From: Candidatus Oxydemutatoraceae bacterium
GTDB taxonomy: Bacteria; Pseudomonadota; Gammaproteobacteria; Poriferisulfidales; Oxydemutatoraceae
Assembly (NCBI GenBank): GCA_965211995.1
Contig: OZ243040.1
Coordinates: forward strand, 1,100,249 to 1,164,248
Reading direction: 5' to 3'
Length of the DNA: 64,000 nucleotides
Below are positions 2,215 to 34,106 of the stretch, piece after piece (within the stretch, counting starts at the first letter, position 1; each line of letters begins with the position of its first letter). The notes beneath the pieces were generated by a model. The model made no database searches. It was given only the letters and a program-made list of their open reading frames with translations, and had not been told where the DNA came from. The position numbers were made by a program, and so were the translations under genes.

Positions 2215-2762
2215 CCGAACTGCCGCCCGCGACGACAAAGAGCCAAGCCCGGGCGCCTGCTCGCACCCGGCGCGCACCGCAACACAAGACCATGAAAACC
2301 ACTTACGCACCGCACCGGATCGAGCAGTCCCGACGCCGCGAATGGGGAGACCCGAACTGCCGCCCGCGACGACAAAGAACCAAGCCCGGGCGCCTGCACG
2401 CACCCGGCGCGCACCGCAACACAAGACCATGAAAACCACTTATGCACCGCACCGGATCGAGCAGTCCCGACGCCGCGAATGGGGAGACCCGAACTGCCGC
2501 CCGCGACGACAAAGAGCCAAGCCCGGGCGCCTGCTCGCACCCGCCGCGCGCCGCAACGCAAGACCATGAAAACCACTTACGCACCACGCCGGATCGAGCA
2601 ATCCCGCCGCCGCAAATGGGAAGACCCGAACTGCCGCCCACGACGACAAAGAACCAAGCCCGGGCGCCTGCGCGCACCCGCCGTGCGCCGCAACGCAAGA
2701 CCATGAAAACCACTTACACACCGCACCGGATCGAGCAGTCCCGCTACCGCGAATGGGAAGCC
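2215..2762 (+). repeat. Tandem array of 4 x 137 bp that reiterates the valS start region
   Basis: Units start at 2215, 2352, 2489 and 2626. Each holds about 77 nt of upstream sequence plus ATGAAAACCACTTA... (ATGs at 2292, 2429, 2566, 2703). By hand alignment, units 1 and 2 differ at 3 positions and units 3 and 4 are more diverged. Confidence 0.9.
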
Positions 2763-5447
2763 TCGGGCTGCTTCGCCGCGAGCGGCGACGGCGCGCCCTA
2801 CTGCATCATGCTGCCGCCGCCGAACGTCACCGGCACTTTGCACATGGGACACGCTTTTCAGACCACGCTGATGGACTGCCTGATCCGCTACCACCGGATG
2901 CGCGGGTTCCGCACCCTGTGGCAGGCCGGCACCGACCACGCCGGCATCGCGACGCAGATGGTGGTCGAACGCCGTCTCGAAGCCGCGGGCGTCGCCCGCC
3001 GCGACCTCGGGCGCGAACGCTTCATCGAAAAGATCTGGGAGTGGAAGAAAACGTCGGGTAATACGATCACGCGGCAATTGCGCCGGCTCGGCGCGTCGCT
3101 CGACTGGCGGCGCGAACGCTTCACCATGGACGACGAATTGTCGCGCGCGGTGCTCGCGGCGTTCACGCGCCTTTACGACGAAGACCTGATCTACCGCGGC
3201 AAGCGCCTGGTCAACTGGGACCCGGCGCTGCAAACCGCGGTGTCCGATCTCGAGGTGATCTCGGAAGAGGAAGACGGGCATCTGTGGCACCTGCGCTATC
3301 CCCTCGCCGACGCGGCCGGCGGCGAACACGTCACGGTCTCGACGACCCGGCCCGAAACCCTGCTCGGCGATACCGCCGTCGCGGTGCACCCCGCAGACGA
3401 GCGTTACCGCGAACTCATCGGGCGGCGCGTGACGCTGCCGCTCGCCGGACGCGACATACCGGTCATCGCCGACGACTACGTCGATCCCGAGTTCGGTTCG
3501 GGCTGCGTGAAGATCACGCCGGCGCACGATTTCAACGACTACCGGGTCGGCAAGCGCCACGGCCTGGCAGTGATCAACGTCATGCGCGAGGACGCGTCGC
3601 TGAACGACGAAGTCCCCGCCGAGTACCGCGGTCTCGACCGCTACGCGGCGAGAAAACGCATCGTCGCCGACCTCGACCATTGCGGCCTGCTCGCAAAAGT
3701 CGAACCCCGGCGCATGACGATACCGCGCGGCGACCGCAGCGGCGCGGTGATCGAGCCGTACCTGACCGACCAGTGGTTCGTGCGCGCCGAAGCACTCGCC
3801 GCAGCCGCAAAACAGGCGGTCACCGACGGGCGCATCCGCTTCGTGCCCGACAACTGGCGCAAGACTTATTTTGAGTGGATGAACCGCATCGAGGACTGGT
3901 GCATCAGCCGCCAACTGTGGTGGGGGCACCGCATCCCCGCGTGGTACGACGAAGCGGGCAACGTGTACGTCGCGCACTCCGAAGCCGCAGCCCGGGAGCG
4001 GCACCAACTCGGCAACACGTGCAAATTGCGCCGCGACGAGGACGTGCTCGACACCTGGTTCTCCTCCGCGCTGTGGCCGTTCTCGACCCTCGGCTGGCCG
4101 GACGAGACGCCTGAACTTCGGACCTTCTACCCGACCAGCGTGCTGGTCACCGGCTTCGACATCGTCTTCTTCTGGGTCGCGCGCATGATCATGACGGGGG
4201 TCAAGTTGACCGGCGACGTCCCGTTCCGCGAAGTGTACGTGCACGGGCTGGTCAGGGACGCGCAGGGGCGGAAAATGTCGAAGTCCAAGGGCAACGCGCT
4301 CGACCCGATCGACCTGGTGGACGGCATCACCCTCGAAGCGCTGGTGAAAAAACGCCTGGCCGGGTTGATGCAGCCGCACCTCGCCGAGCGCATCGAGCGC
4401 GACACGCGCAAACAGTTTCCCGACGGCATCCCGGCGTACGGCACCGACGCGCTGCGCTTTACCTTCGCCGCGCTGGCGACCAGCGGGCACGACGTTCGCT
4501 TCGACCTCGGGCGCATTGAAGGCTACCGCAATTTCTGCAACAAACTGTGGAACGCGGCACGCTTCGTAACACTGTTCTGCGACAAGGCGGACGCAAACAG
4601 CGCGCCGCCGACGGTGTACGACCGCTGGATACGCCACCGCCTGCACACGCTGACCGCGGAGGTCGCCCGGCACTTTGCAAACTACCGCTTTGACCTCGCG
4701 GCCGCCGGGATCTACGAATTCGTATGGCACGACTTCTGCGACTGGTTTCTCGAGCTCAGCAAAGTCGCGCAAACGGGCGATCGCGCCTGCCTGATCGGCA
4801 CGCTCGAAACCATCCTGCGGCTGCTGCACCCGATCACGCCCTACATCACCGAGGAGATCTGGCAGCAACTCAAGCCGCTGACCGGCTGCGGCGAGGAGAC
4901 AATCCAGCGCCGCCCCTACCCGGCGCCCGCCGAAACCTCCGCCGACGCGCACGCCGAACGGGCCGTCGCACGCCTGCGCGAGATCGTCGTCGGCCTGCGG
5001 CGCGTGCGCTCGGAACTCGACCTGCCGCCGGGCCGGGCGCTGCCGGTGCTGATCCAAAACTGGAGCGCGCGCGACCGCGAACACTTTGAGCGGCACCGCA
5101 GCGCGATCGCGGCGCTCGGCGGCGTCGCGGGCGTCGAGTGGCTCGAACCCTCGGCGCCGGCGCCGCAGGCGTCGATCGTGCTGGTCGGCGACATGCAACT
5201 GCTGGTGCCGCTCGCCGGCCTGATCGACGCCCCGGCCGAGATCGCGCGCCTGCACAAGCAAGTCTCGAGAATCCGCAAGCAACTCGCAAGCGCGCAAACG
5301 CGGCTCGACAACCGGAACTTCGTGAACAAAGCGCCCGCCGAGATCATCGCGGCGCAACGCGCCAACGTCGGCGACTGCGAGGCGCGGATCGCCAAACTGA
5401 ACGAGCAGATCGCGGCGCTGGGAGCGCTGGAGCAGAACGCACGCTGA
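2703..5447 (+). CDS. valS: Valyl-tRNA synthetase
   Basis: From the ATG at 2703 the product begins [52 protein letters not shown], which is collinear with the E. coli ValRS N-terminus. A KMSKSKGN motif is present. The track ORF from 2442 is an in-frame extension through the repeat array. Confidence 0.93.
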
Positions 5448-5640: not shown

Positions 5641-6375
5641 TCAGCCGCTTTTTCTCTTGCAGAAACCGCGCAGTACATTTTTAACGTATTCCGGGATCTC
5701 CGCTTGCACTTTTGCAGCCTCTTCTGCAAGCAGATCGTATGCAGCGGTTTCTTCACCCACCCATAACAAATCAAGCCTGCGGATATCTCGCGTAGCAACG
5801 TGCGTATATGACTCCGGATAGGCCCAATAACAGGATTGGCAAACTGCCGGATCCTTGGCTTGCCAATTCCCGCAGTTCTCACAACTCCATGATTTTGCCC
5901 TGTTTGCAGAAGCGCATAACAGCATATATTCATCAAGGTTTTCAGTTGCAGCGCCACTGTCCCCTGAGATTTCAAATGGAATCCTGTGATCGATTTGCAG
6001 TTCCCTTAATGGCAACGGCTCAAGATAGATATTGCAGCGAGAGCCGTGCTTTTCCATCAGCGCCGTCTTTAGATTGGATGAGAAAGCCGTCCGCCCGCAC
6101 CGCCGGGCAACGCGCACTTCCGCTGGATCGCCAAATTAATAAGCGGCAATCCTTTTGCCGTCCGCCCCGGTAACAAAAAACGTTGCTATCGGGATGCCCC
6201 GCTCCCTGACGTCTCTTATTGCCCGCGGGGGATGGTGATAACCGTAGAGGTCTTTAAGTTCTTCCGTCGTTATCCGTCCGTGCTTGAGAATATGATCAAT
6301 TACGATCTTCGGGCGTTTTGCTTCCACGCTCTTCAGCAATTTTAAAAACTCGGGCGGATAAGCCTGCTTTCTCAT
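5641..6375 (-). pseudogene. HNH (beta-beta-alpha-Me) restriction endonuclease-like gene, apparently split by an in-frame TAA
   Basis: ORF 6136..6375 (winged-helix-like N-terminal part) and ORF 5641..6117 are in the same frame. The second has the HNH motif QIDHRIPF and Cys pairs CENC / CQSC. Only a TAA at 6136-6138 and 6 sense codons separate them. ATGA overlap with the upstream methylase gene at 6372-6375. GC is lower than in the flanks. Confidence 0.55.
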
Positions 6376-7301
6376 GCGAGCACAAGCTCCCGCTGCTTTT
6401 CATTCGCCGGATAAGCGACTCTCGTCTCACCGCGGTTCAATCTGTCCACCAGGGCCGGGGATAAATACAGCGATTCGACGGTCTCGTCGTCGCCCCCCAA
6501 CAACGTGGCCTGGCTCGACCTGCCCGCGTGAATGAACAGGTGCTTCAGCGACAAACTCCGTGGCAACCGTTGGCCGTGAATTTTTCCGCCGGTGGCACCA
6601 TCGTAACTGATTATGTAAGAAATGCGCTTTTTATTCATCTCCCGCAACGCATCAACAAAGTTATCGTAAGTGAGCCCGTTGAAGTACCGGCGATCTCTCG
6701 TGAAAGACGTTCCCTGATAGGGGGGATCCATATACACCAGGTCTTCGACTTTGACCCTGTTTACGGCCTTTCTAAAATCGACGGAAGACACGGTCGTCCT
6801 TGTGGTCAGCAGTCGGAAGACCCCCGTAATGTTCTTCCTCATCGTTCTCGGCTTCATCCCGGAACGCCTGTTGTCCGCGCTTTGATTAAACAAGCCTTCG
6901 GCACTGTATCTCACCGCCCCCTTTACGATGCGGGCGAGCAAATACAACAGATGATGCGGCTGATGAGAAACATTGAACTCCTCGCGGATACGAAAGAAAT
7001 ACTCTTTTCGATCCGGACGCTGTGCAAGCCATAGCCGTTCATATTTATCAGCCAATTCGTTCGGCCTCTCAAGGATCTCCGCCCACAGCCCCATCAACGG
7101 CTCGTTCAGATCATTGAGCACGAATCGCTTCGCCAAATCGTGTGCGGCGGCGGCGATGGAAATTGCGCCGGCGCCGCAAAAAGGCTCAATCAAACACCGC
7201 ACGTCGCAGGGAAAGTGCGGAAGTATGTTCTTTGCAATTCCGCGCTTGCTCCCCTGGTACGGAAACGGGTGAGGCGCGGATAAATTTTGATGCGTTTTCA
7301 T
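6372..7301 (-). CDS. Dam-like (D12 class) N6-adenine DNA methyltransferase
   Basis: Motifs PYQGSKR, EPFCGAGA (SAM binding) and DPPY. The likely start is the internal ATG at 7301 (MKTHQNLSAPHPFPYQGSK), not the track start at 7421. Confidence 0.85.
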   Translation of the reverse strand: MKTHQNLSAPHPFPYQGSKRGIAKNILPHFPCDVRCLIEPFCGAGAISIAAAAHDLAKRFVLNDLNEPLMGLWAEILERPNELADKYERLWLAQRPDRKEYFFRIREEFNVSHQPHHLLYLLARIVKGAVRYSAEGLFNQSADNRRSGMKPRTMRKNITGVFRLLTTRTTVSSVDFRKAVNRVKVEDLVYMDPPYQGTSFTRDRRYFNGLTYDNFVDALREMNKKRISYIISYDGATGGKIHGQRLPRSLSLKHLFIHAGRSSQATLLGGDDETVESLYLSPALVDRLNRGETRVAYPANEKQRELVLA

Positions 7302-7451
7302 GCGCCTGATTTTACCTTGTTTCGATAACTTAACGGTAAAATATAAACACGCGCGAGCGCCCGGCGGAAGGTGCAACGATGCCGCAGAATCTTTCAGACA
7401 AAATCCAACGCTCCCTGCCACGTCCGGGTTCGCTCGGAGAGACTGAGAGAT

Positions 7452-28178: not shown

Positions 28179-29687
28179 ATGTCGGCATCAAATCAAAGGG
28201 TTATTTGCATCGGCGGCGGCCCGGCCGGACTGACCGCCGCCTACTTGCTGTCGAAGAAAGGCATTCCCGTCACCGTGCTGGAAGCCGATCCGGTTTATCT
28301 GGGCGGCATCTCCAAAACCGTGTCGCATAAAGGTTTTCTGTGCGACATCGGCGGGCACCGCTTCTTCTCCAAGTCGCAGGAAGTCGTTGATCTGTGGGGC
28401 GAAATTCTCGACGAAGGCTTCATAAAAAGACCGAGAAAGTCGCGCATCTATTATAAAAATAAATTCTTTGACTACCCGCTGAAACCGGGAAACGCGCTTT
28501 CCAACCTCGGCCTTAGCGAGGCCGGCCTCTGCATTCTTTCCTACCTGAAAGCGTCTTTGTTGCCGGTGAAAAACCCGGTGAACTTTGAGGACTGGGTGAG
28601 CAACAAGTTCGGCCGCCGGCTGTTCTCGATTTTTTTCAAGTCCTATACCGAGAAAGTCTGGGGGATGAAATGCTCGGAAATCTCCGCGGACTGGGCGGCT
28701 CAGCGCATCAAGGGGCTGTCGCTGTGGGCGATGGTCAAGAACGCGTTGTTTCCCGGCCGCTCCGCGTCCGGAGACGCGGCCAAAGGCGCCGTGATAAAGA
28801 CCTTGATCGACTCGTTCCACTACCCGCGCAAAGGCCCGGGCATGATGTGGGAAAGCGCGGGACGCAAAATCGAACAACAAGGCGGCGAAATCAAGACCGG
28901 GCAGCGGGTGGTCGGGCTGCGCCGCATCGAAACCGGGTGGGACGTCGTGTCCCGCGCCGCGGACGGGGTGTCCCGCGCCGCGGACGGGGCCGAGGCGCAT
29001 CACGAGGCCGGCTCGGTCATATCAAGCGCCCCGCTCAGGGAACTGGTGCAGTGCCTCGAACCTCGACCGTCCCGGAACGTTGTCGCGGCGGCCAATTCGC
29101 TGCATTACAGGGACTTCCTGATCGTCGGCCTCATCGTCGAAGACCGGCGCCTCTTTGATGACAACTGGATCTACATCCACGACCCGGCGGTGAAAGTCGG
29201 CAGAATACAAAATTTCAAGTCATGGTCTCCCGACATGGTGCCCGAACCCGGCAGGAACTGCTACGGAATGGAGTATTTCTGCTTTGAGGGAGACGGGATC
29301 TGGACGAGCGCCGATGCGGACTTGATCAAACTTGCAAGCGACGAGTTGATCCAACTCGGGCTGGCCCGCCCGGGCGACGTCGCCGACGGCTTCGTGGTGC
29401 GGCAGAAAAAAGCCTACCCGGTGTATGACGACGCCTATGCAGAGAACGTCGCCATCGTCCGCCGCGAGATCGAGGAGCACTACCCCGGCCTTTATCCGGT
29501 CGGCAGGAACGGGATGCACAAATACAACAATCAGGACCACGCGATGATGACGGCGATGCTGACGGTCGAAAACATCATCGCCGGAGAACAACGCTATGAC
29601 GTGTGGAAAGTGAACCAGGACGCGGAGTACATTGAAGAGCAAACAAGGCCCGCCGAGAAGGGAAGAGCGACGCCGCATAAAATTTAG
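28179..29687 (+). CDS. FAD/NAD(P)-binding oxidoreductase (amine-oxidase / protoporphyrinogen-oxidase-like fold)
   Basis: N-terminal dinucleotide-binding motif [17 protein letters not shown]...VLEA. 502 aa. Substrate unknown. Confidence 0.75.
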
Positions 29688-29775
29688 GTTTTCCAAAATG
29701 CCGAAGCGCCGGGGAAAAAGAACCGTCGCACAGCGCCCGAAAAGTCAGCCGGAACGCCGGACACGTCACGAAAAT

Positions 29776-29915
29776 AAACTGAACGTGCCGGCGGGCCTGA
29801 CGGGCCGAATGCACCGGTTTTAATCGTTTTTACCTACGCCTGGCCACCGCCTCTTTAGGATTTGACGAACCGGGGACCTCGATTGTAATCAGTCGCTGCA
29901 AGAGCACTTTTTAAT
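29776..29915 (+). repeat. Remnant of the RCC1-gene 3' end plus downstream sequence (direct-repeat partner of 32446..32660)
   Basis: AAACTGAACGTGCCGGCGGGCCTGACGGGCCGAATGCACCGGTTTTAATCG aligns with AAACGAACGTGCCGACAGGCTTGGCGGGCCGGATACGTCATCTGTAATCC. The similarity continues downstream (TTTGACG..., AATCAG, CTGCAAG.GCACTTTTT). Confidence 0.65.
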
Positions 29916-31540
29916 TTTGGGATTATCCCCCCGCCGCCCGAAGCCCGGTTCACCCGCACCGCGTCAAGGGGAGGCAGTTGGCGCCGTTGCATTGGTTGTC
30001 GCCCCGCCGCCCTAAATTCATCCCATCTGCCCCTGCCATCGGCGAGCGTTTTTTTTTCAGCCATGGTCATCAGGGCTTGAAGCAGTCAGGCCTTACCGTA
30101 TCCAACCTTTGTATATATAAATCTTATCTCGTCCTGGATTTGTCGCACTTTTCTTTAGATTTATCTAGTCTTTGTCATCCTTCATCTTATATTTGTCTAA
30201 CATTCACTCTGTTGGGTTCGGAGTTTGCTGCATCCGAGGTTTGCCGAGTCAGGGGGCGTCGAGTTTGAGCCGCCCCGCCGGAACGCCGGATGAATCGGGA
30301 TGCCCCCCGAATCCGGCGCGTGACTGCGCCGCCGCTGGCCTTGAGGCCCGACGCCGCCCGGCGCTTTCAATCAGCAGCGGGCGCGGCGCCAATACCCGGA
30401 TAAGCCTTGTGGCGGTTGAAAACGCAGTTTTGACCCTTATCAAGCGGCCCGCTTGCAGCCGCAACTGTTATATAGTTTTCGGGAACGGCGGCGGCGCCGG
30501 ACGCAGAGGCCGCGATGACGGTCGGCCTGTGAAGCGTCAGAACTGACAACTTCCAGTAATCAACCGATGACCCGGGAGGCTGGCATGTCACACAAAACAC
30601 TCAACCGGCAATTCGCAGGACGGATTGCGGCACTTCTCGCAGCTTCAACTCTGTTCATCACGGCTTCGGCTTTCGCCCAAACCGACCCCGCATCGGAGTC
30701 TTCGCTGTTTGCGCGCTGCAACGAGCGGGTGGCGGACACCTACGTCTCGGCCTTCGAGGTCACGGCGGACTTCGATGTCGGCGAACAGGAGAGCCAATTG
30801 TTTTGCACACCGCAGAGCAACATTGCAGGCAACGGCGCGGACGTGGCCGTGCTTGACGTCACCGACGACGACGGCGTGGCGGGGCGTCCAAACTGGTGCT
30901 CGGGTCGGTGCAGGTGGCACGGGGCTACATGCTAATTGCGTTCACCGAAGCCGACTACGCCGGGGCAAGCCGCTACTACGACGGCTCGGCGGCGGCGTTG
31001 GACGAGATGCGGATCGGCTCCTACATGGTGCGCCTTGATCCGATTGTCAGCGCCTGCGGCGGCGACCGCTCGGTGAAGGTGGTGTTCTGGGACCGGAAGA
31101 ATTTCACCAGTTCGTCCGGCGCACAGCCATATTGCTTCAGCCGGGATCAGCGCGACGTGGAGGACGTGGTTGATGCGGCTTTCGTCAAGATGAGATCGGT
31201 GCACGTGAACCGGGCCTACAAACTGATCGCGTTCAGGCAAACGAACTATGCGGGGGACGTGCGGGTGCTGTTCAGCGACGACGCGGACACGGCGGTGGGC
31301 CTAAACGCCTTCAAGGTGAAATCGTATCTGCTGGTGCCGAGTGTGGCATTGGAGAGCGTCGAGGAAACCGACGCCGGCGTGGTGTTGAGTTATTCGCGGG
31401 TGAGCACCGGCAGCCATAGCGTGGTGATCCCGCGTGCGGCTTTCCGGGTGGTGGAGAGCGAGGATGAGTTGAGCCGGACGCTTCAATATGCGACCGGTCG
31501 CGAGGACGAGCCGTGGCGGGACTTGGCGACGGTCAAGGAC

Positions 31541-31693
31541 GGTCGGGACGGTGAGGACGGCAAGGACGGCGCGGGCGGGGCGCAAGGTCCGCAAGGCGAC
31601 AAAGGGGATGCCGGCCCGCCAGGACAGGACGGCGCAGTCGGGGCGCAAGGCCCGCAAGGTGCCGCCGGTCCGCCGGGACAGGATGGGAAAGAC
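31541..31693 (+). repeat. Collagen-like G-X-Y region (17 triplets)
   Basis: GRDGEDGKDGAGGAQGPQGDKGDAGPPGQDGAVGAQGPQGAAGPPGQDGKDG. Confidence 0.85.
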
Positions 31694-31887
31694 GGGACAA
31701 GCCAGGTGGCCTCGTTTGACCCGTTGACCTCCTCCTGCGGGGACGACAATAAAGGCGTCATGGAGTATGACCGCGCCGGCACGAACCTGCTGATCTGCGA
31801 CGGGGCAAAATGGATTACGTTATCGTTCACGCAAACCGGCACCCGTTTGGATTTTCCGTCCGCTGATGAGTTGGGATCAGCGACTTC

Positions 31888-32489
31888 TTTCGGCGGGTGG
31901 GGACACACCTGCGCGGTGCTGGACAACGGCAATGTCGAGTGCTGGGGTCGTAACACCGATGGCCAAACGAACGTGCCGGCGGGTTTGGCGGGCCGGGTGC
32001 GCCAGATTGCGGCGGGTCAGAAGTACACCTGCGCGGTGACGGACGACGGCAATGCCGAGTGCTGGGGTCTTAACCGCAATGGCCGAACGAACGTGCCGAC
32101 GGGCTTGGCGGGCCGGGTGCACCGGATCGCGGCGGGCGGTCATCACACTTGTGCAGTGACGGACGATGGCAATGTCGAATGCTGGGGCTGGAATGGCGAT
32201 GGCCAAACGAACGTGCCGGCGGGCTTGGCGGGCAGAGTGCGCCGGATTGCGGCGGGCGTCCGGCACACCTGCGCGGGTGCCGGACGACGGCAATGCCGAG
32301 TGCTGGGGTCTTAACCACGATGGCCAAACAAACGTGCCGGCGGATTTGGCGGGCCGGGTGCGCCAGATTGCGGCGGGCAGTTTTCACACCTGTGCGCTGA
32401 CGGACGGCGGCAATGTCGAGTGCTGGGGCAATAACACCCAAGACCAAACGAACGTGCCGACAGGCTTGGCGGGCCGGATACGTCATCTG
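31888..32489 (+). repeat. Five tandem 114-bp (38-aa) RCC1-like repeats
   Basis: The unit HTCAVTDDGNVECWG.N.DGQTNVPAGLAGRVR.IAAG occurs 5 times with near-identical DNA. Confidence 0.85.
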
Positions 32490-32660
32490 TAATCCCTTTG
32501 CCTGCGCCCGGCCTGCCGACTTTTAAGGTTTGACGGGCGGGCGCCCCGGTTTCAATCAGCCATCGCGGGAGCGGTTTCAGTTTGGAGGTTGCCGCCCGCC
32601 GTTACAGGCTCCACTCATCCTCATCCTGCCGTCTGCAAGCACTTTTTCAATGAGGCGAAG
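32446..32660 (+). repeat. Direct-repeat partner of 29776..29915 (true 3' end of the RCC1 gene plus downstream sequence)
   Basis: See 29776..29915. This copy carries an extra internal segment of about 65 nt. Confidence 0.6.
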
Positions 32661-32813
32661 GAAAGTTAAACGCGATAAAAGGAACTGATAAAAGTGTCGG
32701 CACACAGATAGTGTACGAGTCCATAACGTCCGGCACTTGCTTGACAGTTCGTTAGTGATCCAGCAAAATTCGAAACCTGAAAAATCGGTTTCTCGCCCCG
32801 CTTCTGCATAACC

Positions 32814-34106
32814 ATGGCTGGAAAAAAACATAAACGCGGTCGCCCATTGGCACGGCCGCACTTGAGCAACCCCCAAACCCGGCAACCCCACCCCAAAAAA
32901 CGCACTCTGCAGCGCGACTATTCGCCGCCTGCAATCTACGCAGTTGCCGCGGCGGTTCTGGCGGGCGTCTATATCCTGTGGCAACTGCAATCTCCGACAA
33001 TCTCATATCCGTTCGACGATCAAAAAACCGCCCGGAAATGGAGCGTTCAAGGGCGGGCGGAAACGCAATTGACACCGGACGGACTGTTGGTAAAACCGCA
33101 AGACGCCGCCCTACTGATAAGTCCCCGGCTTGCTCCCCTGCGGCAAACCCTGAATTGGCGCAACTTTCCCTACGTCAAACTGAGCGTCACCCCCGAAGCC
33201 AAGGAACGCCGGATGGCGCTGGCTTGGATTCCCGGCCAAGATCCCAATCAGAATTACCAACTTCCTTTCACGGTGCCTGCGTCAGCCTCCGAAGTGCTGC
33301 TCGACGTTCGGCAGGACGTGGCGTGGGAAAGACGTTTCGGCTGGGATCGAAACGCTTTGTCGCAGACACCGGTCAGACGCTTAGGGGTGCTGCTTCAGAA
33401 CACTGTCGAAGTCCGCGAGGTCGCCCTGCTTTCCAGCCTTAACCCGCTGCAATTGAGCCGATTGCTGTGGTCCCAGTATTGGGCGGTCGAACCGGTCAAA
33501 GTCAGTTCTATCAACGCTCATTACGGCAACGAGGTGCTGGGAACACCGCTGGTCACGACATTCGGAATAATTTTTGCCGTTTTATTCGCGCTGATGCTGG
33601 TCAGCCGGCGGAAAAAATTCAAAGTGCCGTTGCTGTCGGCGATGCTGGTTTGTTTTATCGCTCCCGAAATGCCGTTCGTCGGCACTTTGTGGGAACAGGC
33701 CGCGGCAAGCGGCAAAGTATCGGCCTGGCACGCCGACCGCTACGACGAATACCGCTCGCGTTTCAATCAGGAGTTCGCCGATCTCGACAGGGAGTTTCTC
33801 AAGCGCGTGCCGGCCGGTTCTCGCGTCGCGTTTCCCAACTCTAAACAATGGCTGATACAGGGTGAAAGCAACTGGATCTGGTTTTTATACTATGACCTGT
33901 ACGAAAACTATAAAGATCGCGAAAGAGACAGCACCCATTTGGACAAAAACACCCAGTACGTCTTTTATTACCACCCCGCCGGACTGGCTCACGATGAGGC
34001 AAAGAACATTCTGCACCGCACCGAAGGCAAAAAGAAAGGCTATAAAACGGAAACTCTGGCCCGAATATCAGAACAAGCCAAAATTCTGAAACTCATCCAT
34101 GACTAG
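32814..34106 (+). CDS. Hypothetical membrane-anchored protein (N-terminal TM, about 200-aa extracytoplasmic domain, central TM pair, C-terminal domain)
   Basis: 430-aa ORF with protein-like composition. Hydrophobic segments AIYAVAAAVLAGVYILW and LVTTFGIIFAVLFALMLV. Overlaps the next gene by 8 nt. Confidence 0.6.
   Translation: MAGKKHKRGRPLARPHLSNPQTRQPHPKKRTLQRDYSPPAIYAVAAAVLAGVYILWQLQSPTISYPFDDQKTARKWSVQGRAETQLTPDGLLVKPQDAALLISPRLAPLRQTLNWRNFPYVKLSVTPEAKERRMALAWIPGQDPNQNYQLPFTVPASASEVLLDVRQDVAWERRFGWDRNALSQTPVRRLGVLLQNTVEVREVALLSSLNPLQLSRLLWSQYWAVEPVKVSSINAHYGNEVLGTPLVTTFGIIFAVLFALMLVSRRKKFKVPLLSAMLVCFIAPEMPFVGTLWEQAAASGKVSAWHADRYDEYRSRFNQEFADLDREFLKRVPAGSRVAFPNSKQWLIQGESNWIWFLYYDLYENYKDRERDSTHLDKNTQYVFYYHPAGLAHDEAKNILHRTEGKKKGYKTETLARISEQAKILKLIHD

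Follow-up and report, generated by a model that had tools for sequence, protein, structure and literature searches.

To our knowledge, bacterial collagen-like proteins are few, and all of those that have been characterised (Scl, BclA, and Lcl) are surface adhesins or spore fibres. Scl1 and Scl2 of Streptococcus pyogenes, BclA of Bacillus anthracis, and Lcl of Legionella pneumophila share an exported, uninterrupted (G-X-Y)n run that is charged and proline-poor, with globular domains on either side, of which one is expected to start trimer formation. The gene described here encodes a protein with these same properties; it occupies positions 30585–32492 on the plus strand of a 64,000-nucleotide stretch of DNA (the window; positions 1,100,249 to 1,164,248 of contig OZ243040.1, assembly GCA_965211995.1) from a Candidatus Oxydemutatoraceae bacterium, and its collagen-like run is placed between two beta/gamma-crystallin-type modules and an RCC1-type propeller. 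We estimate at about 0.75 the probability that the gene at this locus is a copy, now inactivated, from a small multi-copy family and that the intact protein is a Sec-exported crystallin-collagen-RCC1 fibre.

The gene is covered by three collinear open reading frames (ORFs) on the plus strand, 30567/30585–30935, 30896–32314, and 32166–32492, in frames 0, 2, and 0. Joined at 30884/30887 and 32275/32277, they give a protein of 634 amino acids (aa), and in a multiple alignment with three intact relatives (P0001, P0003, and P0004) both junctions are crossed gap-free, end to end; therefore, the three ORFs are pieces of a single gene and not separate genes, which bears out the proposal in a preliminary description of the window that two frameshifts split one gene. 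A Shine-Dalgarno-like GGGAGG (30574–30579, +), read from the sequence, lies 5 nucleotides (nt) 5′ of the ATG at 30585, and the start MSHK... agrees in the alignment with the homologue starts MSRK, MSHR, and MSSN; at the other end, the stop codon (32490–32492, +) follows the C-terminus ...GLAGRIRHL, which fits the family end ...GR(I/V/A)R(Q/L)(F/L). A sigma-70-like promoter was looked for upstream of the gene and none was found; terminator-like hits were at chance level only.

The family is small. A word-indexed search of 5.8 billion protein clusters (~15 billion sequences) retrieved the middle ORF of the window (P0002) and the intact relatives P0001 (756 aa), P0003 (717 aa), and P0004 (738 aa), which cover 97–100% of the joined protein with 49–63% identity; P0130 (756 aa, 90% identical to P0001) was added by a cluster look-up. 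The search for intact homologues suggested by the preliminary description thus yielded four full-length relatives of 717–756 aa, and the searched collections hold five full-length family sequences. When 185,579 species genomes and the JGI metagenomes were scanned for N-terminal peptide patterns, no additional family locus came up. P0001 and P0130 are recorded on a contig of 1,943,614 bases, a length identical to that of the contig with the window ORF P0002; beside the broken copy, two intact paralogues therefore appear to be present in this genome.

Partial relatives share some of the parts: P0123 and P0128 have crystallin-like modules and a collagen run followed by a different C-terminus without a propeller; P0053, P0057, and P0044 combine collagen and RCC1 repeats with unrelated N-termini (28–34% identity over the shared part). 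Judged from these comparisons, the parts recombine, and the three-part crystallin-collagen-RCC1 combination is specific to this family. Full-text searches of the literature did not find the combination described, in agreement with the preliminary description, which had not recognised it as a known family; the architecture is new, yet it is assembled from known modules.

RCC1-like repeats occupy 31901–32489 (+; Pfam and Tandem Repeats Finder) as five 40-aa blades that start at 31901, 32021, 32141, 32261, and 32382, each carrying HTCA...ECWG. The Pfam family RCC1_2 (PF13540) matches in five stretches (E 1.6e-41, 139.5 bits against a cut-off of 22) and so claims the protein as a member, which settles the RCC1-like assignment made from the letters alone; WD40_RLD (PF25390; E 2.8e-39, 135.9 bits) falls under its curated cut-off of 150 bits in the window copy. 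Two details of the earlier account needed correction. Instead of near-identical units of 114 base pairs (bp) encoding 38 aa, Tandem Repeats Finder reports a period of 120 bp or 40 aa (4.8 copies, 79% matches). Also, five blades are not the design of the family: P0001, P0003, and P0004 have seven, the alignment of P0130 with P0001 is gap-free through all seven, and the window copy, with five, falls short of the seven blades that would close the propeller. From these alignments, the native propeller is seven-bladed, and two blades are lost from the window copy. The fourth blade of the window copy is chimeric, that is, it opens like blade 4 of P0001 (VRHTCA) and goes on like blade 6.

Two lesions interrupt the reading frame. 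At the first site (30881–30884, +), GGGG contains a 2-nt (GG) insertion relative to the in-frame alleles (GCG GCG TCC, encoding A-A-S); the insertion moves the frame from 0 to 2 and ends the first frame after 116 codons, and the in-frame form would read GCGGCGTCC at 30879–30887. At the second site (32275–32277, +), GGG contains a 1-nt insertion inside blade 4, between RHTCA and VPDDG, and moves the frame from 2 back to 0; here the in-frame form would read GCGCGGTGCC at 32271–32281. We considered a single unequal recombination between blades 4 and 6 as the cause of both the blade loss and the second frameshift, given that the chimeric junction lies at the shift; this was rejected when an in-frame allele of the same chimeric blade was found in a public sequencing run (X4), which makes the G insertion a probable later event of its own.

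Four public runs (X1–X4, of which X3 and X4 come from another study) were assessed through assembled contigs, and their contents bear directly on whether the gene might be intact in the organism, with the frameshifts, and perhaps also the missing blades, being errors of assembly or polishing in a G-rich, repeat-rich stretch. Both lesions are indeed G insertions within runs of G, the blades are encoded by a 120-bp tandem repeat, of a kind that may be collapsed in assembly, the exact sequence 32334–32455 is not recovered at ≥98% in X1, and the gene is covered at double the depth of its flanks. The first lesion, however, is found exactly in contigs of two runs: the window sequence is identical over 30830–30912 in a contig of X1 (depth 120, 0 differences) and is present over 30700–30918 in a contig of X2 (depth 71). 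Furthermore, the change from GG to GGGG is a +2 change, which is atypical of homopolymer errors and so unlikely to be one. At the second site, a contig of X1 (32246–32333, depth 140) has no gap, and the in-frame form accounts for 0 of 266 depth in that run. In-frame alleles come only from the runs of the other study and from divergent contigs: the 2-nt deletion at 30881 that restores the frame (GVAASKL, as in the homologues) is present in X3 (14/14), in X4 (34/34), and in one variant in X1 (60/180), and the second site has one G fewer, in frame, in X4 (23/62 depth, e.g., a contig covering 32204–32295 with 1 substitution) and in X3 (3/21). We regard assembly error as improbable.

The depths also speak to the number of copies. 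Depth in X1 is 118–146 over 29597–32455 (which takes in a gene relic described below, a spacer, and the broken gene, with zero differences) and 61–63 in the single-copy flanks, so there must be either another identical copy or a shared locus. Tandem duplication of 29627–32455 would explain the twofold depth, and this candidate was set aside because no junction contig was seen. In X2, the unique flanks of the window are at 2–15x and the frameshifted piece is at 71x; therefore, the lesion is shared with a second strain or locus.

The lesions could instead be functional, with phase variation by slipped-strand mispairing or programmed ribosomal frameshifting giving the full-length protein in some cells or at a low rate. 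Phase variation is frequent among surface proteins of multi-copy families, both sites have runs of G, and at the first slippage by −1 on G_GGG would let tRNA-Gly re-pair without mismatch and give ...GVAGASKL..., one residue longer than the homologues. The runs are merely 3–4 G long, though, much shorter than known contingency tracts; near-identical contigs have no length heterogeneity at the first site, and none is present in X1 at the second. Two shifts of opposite sign would be required, there is no canonical slippery heptamer, and the read-through product would still have only five of the seven blades, so functional frameshifting strikes us as very unlikely. Given the two frameshifts, the two blades missing relative to four intact homologues, and the presence of the lesions in contigs of X1 and X2, we conclude that the window copy is quite probably a pseudogene; most likely, it yields no functional protein. 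The preliminary description had mentioned neither this probable loss of function nor the existence of intact paralogues.

The anatomy of the joined protein, aligned with its intact relatives, describes what the gene would have encoded. Residues 1–31 (30585–30677, +) are a Sec-type signal peptide by inspection and hydropathy, with basic K4, R8, and R13, a hydrophobic stretch at residues 14–31 (Kyte-Doolittle 1.69 for residues 14–32), and predicted cleavage between AFA and Q (A29-F30-A31, then Q32); the basic n-region, h-region, and A-x-A site without a lipobox are those of a substrate of signal peptidase I. F30, A31, and Q32 are invariant in the family, and the AFAQ motif with which the preliminary description had ended the signal peptide is kept in every homologue.

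Two modules follow. The first (residues ~40–155; 30702–31051, +; recognised by hhalign and as an internal repeat) is interrupted by the first frameshift. Its first half is divergent, with invariant C45 and C74 and no known match; its second half is plainly recognisable as a beta/gamma-crystallin Greek key (GYMLIAFTEADYAG...GSYMV). The second module (residues 158–254; 31058–31348, +; hhalign, AlphaFold2, and Foldseek) is a complete two-Greek-key domain of the beta/gamma-crystallin type and holds the invariant C157 and C183. The two modules are related by internal duplication (34% identity over 58 aa, E 2e-8). As templates for hhalign, we used 18 canonical domains cut from the crystallin proteins matched in a profile search; module 1 matched with 96.8% probability (E 3e-10) over its second Greek key only, and module 2 with 94.8% (E 5.5e-8) over template columns 2–79 of 84.

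That profile search, an exhaustive comparison of a profile of the N-terminal 319 residues with 1.84 billion representative proteins, gave 11 hits only; beyond family members and their fragments, these were the distant relatives P0123 and P0128 and five Pfam Crystall proteins (P0124–P0127 and P0129), all bona fide, whose alignments keep the Greek-key motifs in register. Module 2 was modelled with AlphaFold2 (pLDDT 92.5, pTM 0.82); the model was used as a Foldseek query, and its top 50 matches in the Protein Data Bank (PDB) were all beta/gamma-crystallin domains (TM 0.65–0.74). In alignment A6, Ser47, Gly66, and Ser89 of module 2 are in register with the crystallins. The microbial Ca2+ motif N/D-N/D-x-x-S/T-S is replaced at the aligned positions of module 2 by F-V-K-M-R-S and A-F-K-V-K-S; therefore, canonical Ca2+ binding is unlikely.

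Direct family searches gave a weak signal. Pfam Crystall_3 (PF08964) scored 16.2 bits (E 0.012) against a cut-off of 27.3, PF00030 gave no hit in the Pfam scan of the joined protein, and the best PDB sequence match, beta-crystallin B1, was not significant (E 1.1). The crystallin-like assignment in the preliminary description is therefore upheld by the profile, hhalign, and fold evidence, with the reservations that the Pfam score is under threshold and that only the second key of module 1 is recognisable; the evidence supports N-terminal modules of the beta/gamma-crystallin type, module 2 being a full domain.

A beta-rich spacer (residues 255–318; 31349–31540, +) has no Pfam match at E up to 10 and no PDB match; it is conserved in the family and, in part, also in P0123 and P0128. 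It precedes the collagen-like region (residues 319–372; 31541–31702, +), which a regular expression and Pfam identify as 18 uninterrupted G-X-Y triplets, or 17 if the final GTS is left out, the number first reported. The Pfam family Collagen (PF01391) matches above its cut-off (32.8 bits against 27.2, E 5.7e-8). By composition count, D, Q, A, K, and P are abundant in the triplets, whereas S and T are almost absent. As in Scl, BclA, and Lcl, the repeat number varies between copies; the homologues have 19–34 triplets, that is, 18–34 with the window copy included. A 63-bp direct repeat, 91% identical, lies within the collagen-coding DNA at 31563–31659, and slippage on units of this type would account for the differing triplet numbers.

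A further reading is a phage origin, in which the gene would be what remains, in an island gained by horizontal transfer, of a tail fibre or receptor-binding protein with a collagen segment. Matches to PHROG tail-fibre families were obtained for both P0001 and the window ORF (E down to 8e-29), the blades are matched by a single family of tail proteins, and the gene lies in a segment of lower GC content (52–60%, compared with 65–70%). Nearly all of the PHROG matches, however, are confined to the G-X-Y run; the conserved Sec signal peptide and invariant cysteine pairs are at odds with the assembly of virions in the cytoplasm, and no other phage gene was seen near the gene here, where cytoplasmic-type neighbours are also lacking and the flanks are housekeeping genes, or in L001 and L002 (the latter carries P0004). 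A phage origin thus seems highly improbable.

Between the collagen-like run and the propeller is a family-specific neck (residues 373–438; 31703–31900, +), delimited by invariant alignment columns, with the invariant C384 and C404. Its motif, C-x9-Y-D-x5-LL-x-CDG-x2-W, occurs in family members only among 131 retrieved proteins, and the neck has no Pfam or PDB sequence match. In total, the family has six invariant cysteines outside the propeller (C45, C74, C157, C183, C384, and C404), and each blade adds two; this pattern fits a protein that would be exported and disulfide-bonded.

Taken together, these parts suggest how the intact protein might work. In order, it comprises a Sec signal, two crystallin-type modules, a beta-rich spacer, (G-X-Y)18–34, a two-cysteine neck, and a seven-bladed propeller of 40-aa blades. 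One of the globular parts that flank the collagen segment would nucleate the triple helix, and three chains would zip their collagen segments into a triple-helical stalk, ~15 nm long for 18 triplets and ~29 nm for 34 if the usual rise per triplet applies. Outside the cytoplasm, the protein would be stabilised by the three invariant cysteine pairs outside the propeller and by the two cysteines of each blade. One end of the stalk would then present three propellers and the opposite end three crystallin pairs, and the result would be a fibre capable of multivalent binding (adhesin or lectin-like), located at the cell surface or in its surroundings, with a layout similar to those of BclA, Lcl, Scl, and C1q/collectins. 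The gene structure, domain identities, frameshifts, loss of blades, paralogues, and mosaic pattern rest on direct observation; trimerisation, disulfides, location, and binding function are the elements that we infer from the anatomy of the protein.

Several observations weigh against the inactivated-copy and fibre reading. The contig of X1 at the second frameshift carries 4 substitutions downstream relative to the window, and the failure to recover 32334–32455 in that run, mentioned above, belongs here as well; the doubled depth of 29597–32455 allows more than one copy number and arrangement, and, with the library type of the runs unrecorded, the short-read origin of the contigs is unproven. 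As to the protein, the alignment used to model module 2 included canonical crystallins, which biases the model to the crystallin fold, so it is not fully independent evidence; an AlphaFold2 model of residues 1–319 from a 4-sequence alignment was unusable (pLDDT 35). Finally, the protein has no recognisable anchor motif.

The paralogues show that the family is in flux. P0130 is nearly identical to P0001 except at residues ~160–255, that is, crystallin module 2, where it resembles the window copy: 22–27 of 30 residues there are those of the window copy, compared with 12–19 for P0001. This mosaic in module 2 looks like a gene-conversion tract. A relic of the 3′ end of another family gene and its downstream flank (29776–29892, +; repeat family D2 and blastn; ...KLNVPAGLTGRMHRF, stop at 29821–29823) lies just past the gene for an FAD oxidoreductase, ~760 bp 5′ of the gene start. 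Its last codons (about 14, then the stop) read ...NVPAGLTGRMHRF, and it matches 32446–32559 by blastn (71% over 118 nt, E 3e-7) and the blade ends at 84–86%. A contig of X2 joins the 3′ end of a family gene to the 29935–30575 spacer, which suggests a tandem arrangement of family genes elsewhere.

These features could be read together as a recombining, variable surface-protein system, pilS/vls-like, in which broken copies act as donors that diversify the expressed copies by gene conversion in module 2. Full-length and decayed copies with conserved spacers, possibly in tandem, would swap segments and so counter recognition by phage, predator, or host; we hold this idea to be doubtful.

The genomic setting is that of the core chromosome. 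The window contains pepA, valS, a dinG-like gene, ispDF, eno, pyrG, tilS, accA, dnaE, lpxB, hflKC, hflX, argJ, secA, lpxC, ftsA, ddl, and murC; its DnaE is merely ~50% identical to those of assorted Gammaproteobacteria, and the host is a deep-branching gammaproteobacterium. Between lpxB and hflKC, at ~26.5–35.5 kb, the GC content falls to 52–60%, compared with 65–70% in the flanks. This segment contains, in order, genes for a GtrA-like protein, an SDR epimerase, and a PRK07208-type FAD oxidoreductase, then the crystallin-collagen-RCC1 gene, and then genes for two membrane proteins (430 aa with 3 transmembrane segments and 465 aa with ~12) that have no family match. The segment is possibly an acquired sugar-modification island. 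The preliminary description had placed the gene in a putative glycosylation island: the three genes upstream agree with this, but no glycosyltransferase family was detected in the annotation of the island genes, and P0003 and P0004 occupy unrelated gene neighbourhoods. The unrelated neighbourhoods, together with the near absence of Ser and Thr from the triplets, therefore speak for no conserved link to glycosylation.

Other features were noted in and around the segment. A 21-nt inverted repeat (30050–30070 and 32808–32828, 90% complementary) brackets the gene: the start of the downstream ORF (ATGGCTGGAAAAAAA) recurs in inverted orientation in the spacer upstream of the gene, where a minus-strand ORF of 71 aa (29855–30070) starts MTMAEKK; the repeat may be the trace of a past rearrangement. 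The FAD-oxidoreductase gene contains a 21-bp tandem duplication (28940–28981) that gives a repeated peptide. Elsewhere in the window, a D12-class (Dam-like) adenine methyltransferase gene (6372–7421, −) has a third-position GC of 0.63, compared with ~0.85 in its neighbours, and is possibly acquired; Rfam and tRNA scans of the window gave no matches. On L002, genes for an NgoFVII-type restriction enzyme, a C5 DNA methylase, and a Vsr endonuclease (2276–4893) lie a few kb upstream of P0004, and an IS1595-type transposase fragment lies downstream.

The immediate consequence for annotation is that the three ORFs are to be treated as fragments of one gene, most likely dead. The family adds a new combination of heads to the bacterial collagen-like proteins, in which crystallin modules precede the collagen run and an RCC1 propeller follows it. 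Its members are exceedingly rare. The family is also multi-copy in a ~1.9-Mb genome, which suggests that it is important for the way of life of the organism. If the intact paralogues do trimerise, they would provide a compact natural scaffold that shows propellers in threes.

How the family relates to described proteins can be stated part by part. Unlike Scl, BclA, and Lcl, its members have no LPXTG anchor, V domain, C1q-like head, or Lcl C-terminal domain, and the host is Gram-negative; their heads are the beta/gamma-crystallin modules and the RCC1-type propeller. Over the collagen run alone, the NCBIfam model for Scl1/SclA (NF038330) matches weakly and in part (E 3.1e-7, 30.4 bits against a cut-off of 400), and that for Scl2/SclB (NF038329) scores 12.7 bits against a cut-off of 325; with the C-terminus ...GRIRHL in place of LPXTG, the protein is not an Scl. 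It also differs from BclA in having almost no Thr or Ser in its triplets; BclA carries glycosylated GXT repeats.

With RCC1-like proteins, e.g., the ‘alpha-tubulin suppressor-like RCC1 family’ (COG5184), the secreted BLIP-II of Streptomyces, and Legionella LegG1, the family shares H-T-C-A...(D/G)G-x-x-x-C-W-G-x-N-x-x-G-Q repeats and, in its intact members, seven blades per propeller, with WD40_RLD above its own cut-off in P0004 only. It differs in that the short 40-aa blades are fused behind a collagen stalk, with five only in the window copy; there is no evidence in this family for guanine nucleotide exchange factor (GEF) or inhibitor activity. The microbial crystallins (Protein S, nitrollin, clostrillin, and flavollin) share the double Greek key, (Y/F/W)xxxx(Y/F)xG, and the conserved Ser, as well as use as a module in secreted multidomain proteins, and the fold matches of module 2 include nitrollin (3ent/3enu), a Flavobacterium domain (3hzb), and a Clostridium domain (3i9h). 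In contrast to these, the first key of module 2 has W-x4-F-x-S and a 3-residue insert that replaces Gly, each module has a conserved cysteine pair, and the Ca2+ motif is replaced. The animal ‘bouquet’ proteins C1q, collectin, and ficolin are alike in layout only (N-terminal region, collagen stalk, neck, and C-terminal head in threes); they have other head folds and no sequence relationship beyond the G-X-Y run, so the resemblance is one of analogy, not membership.

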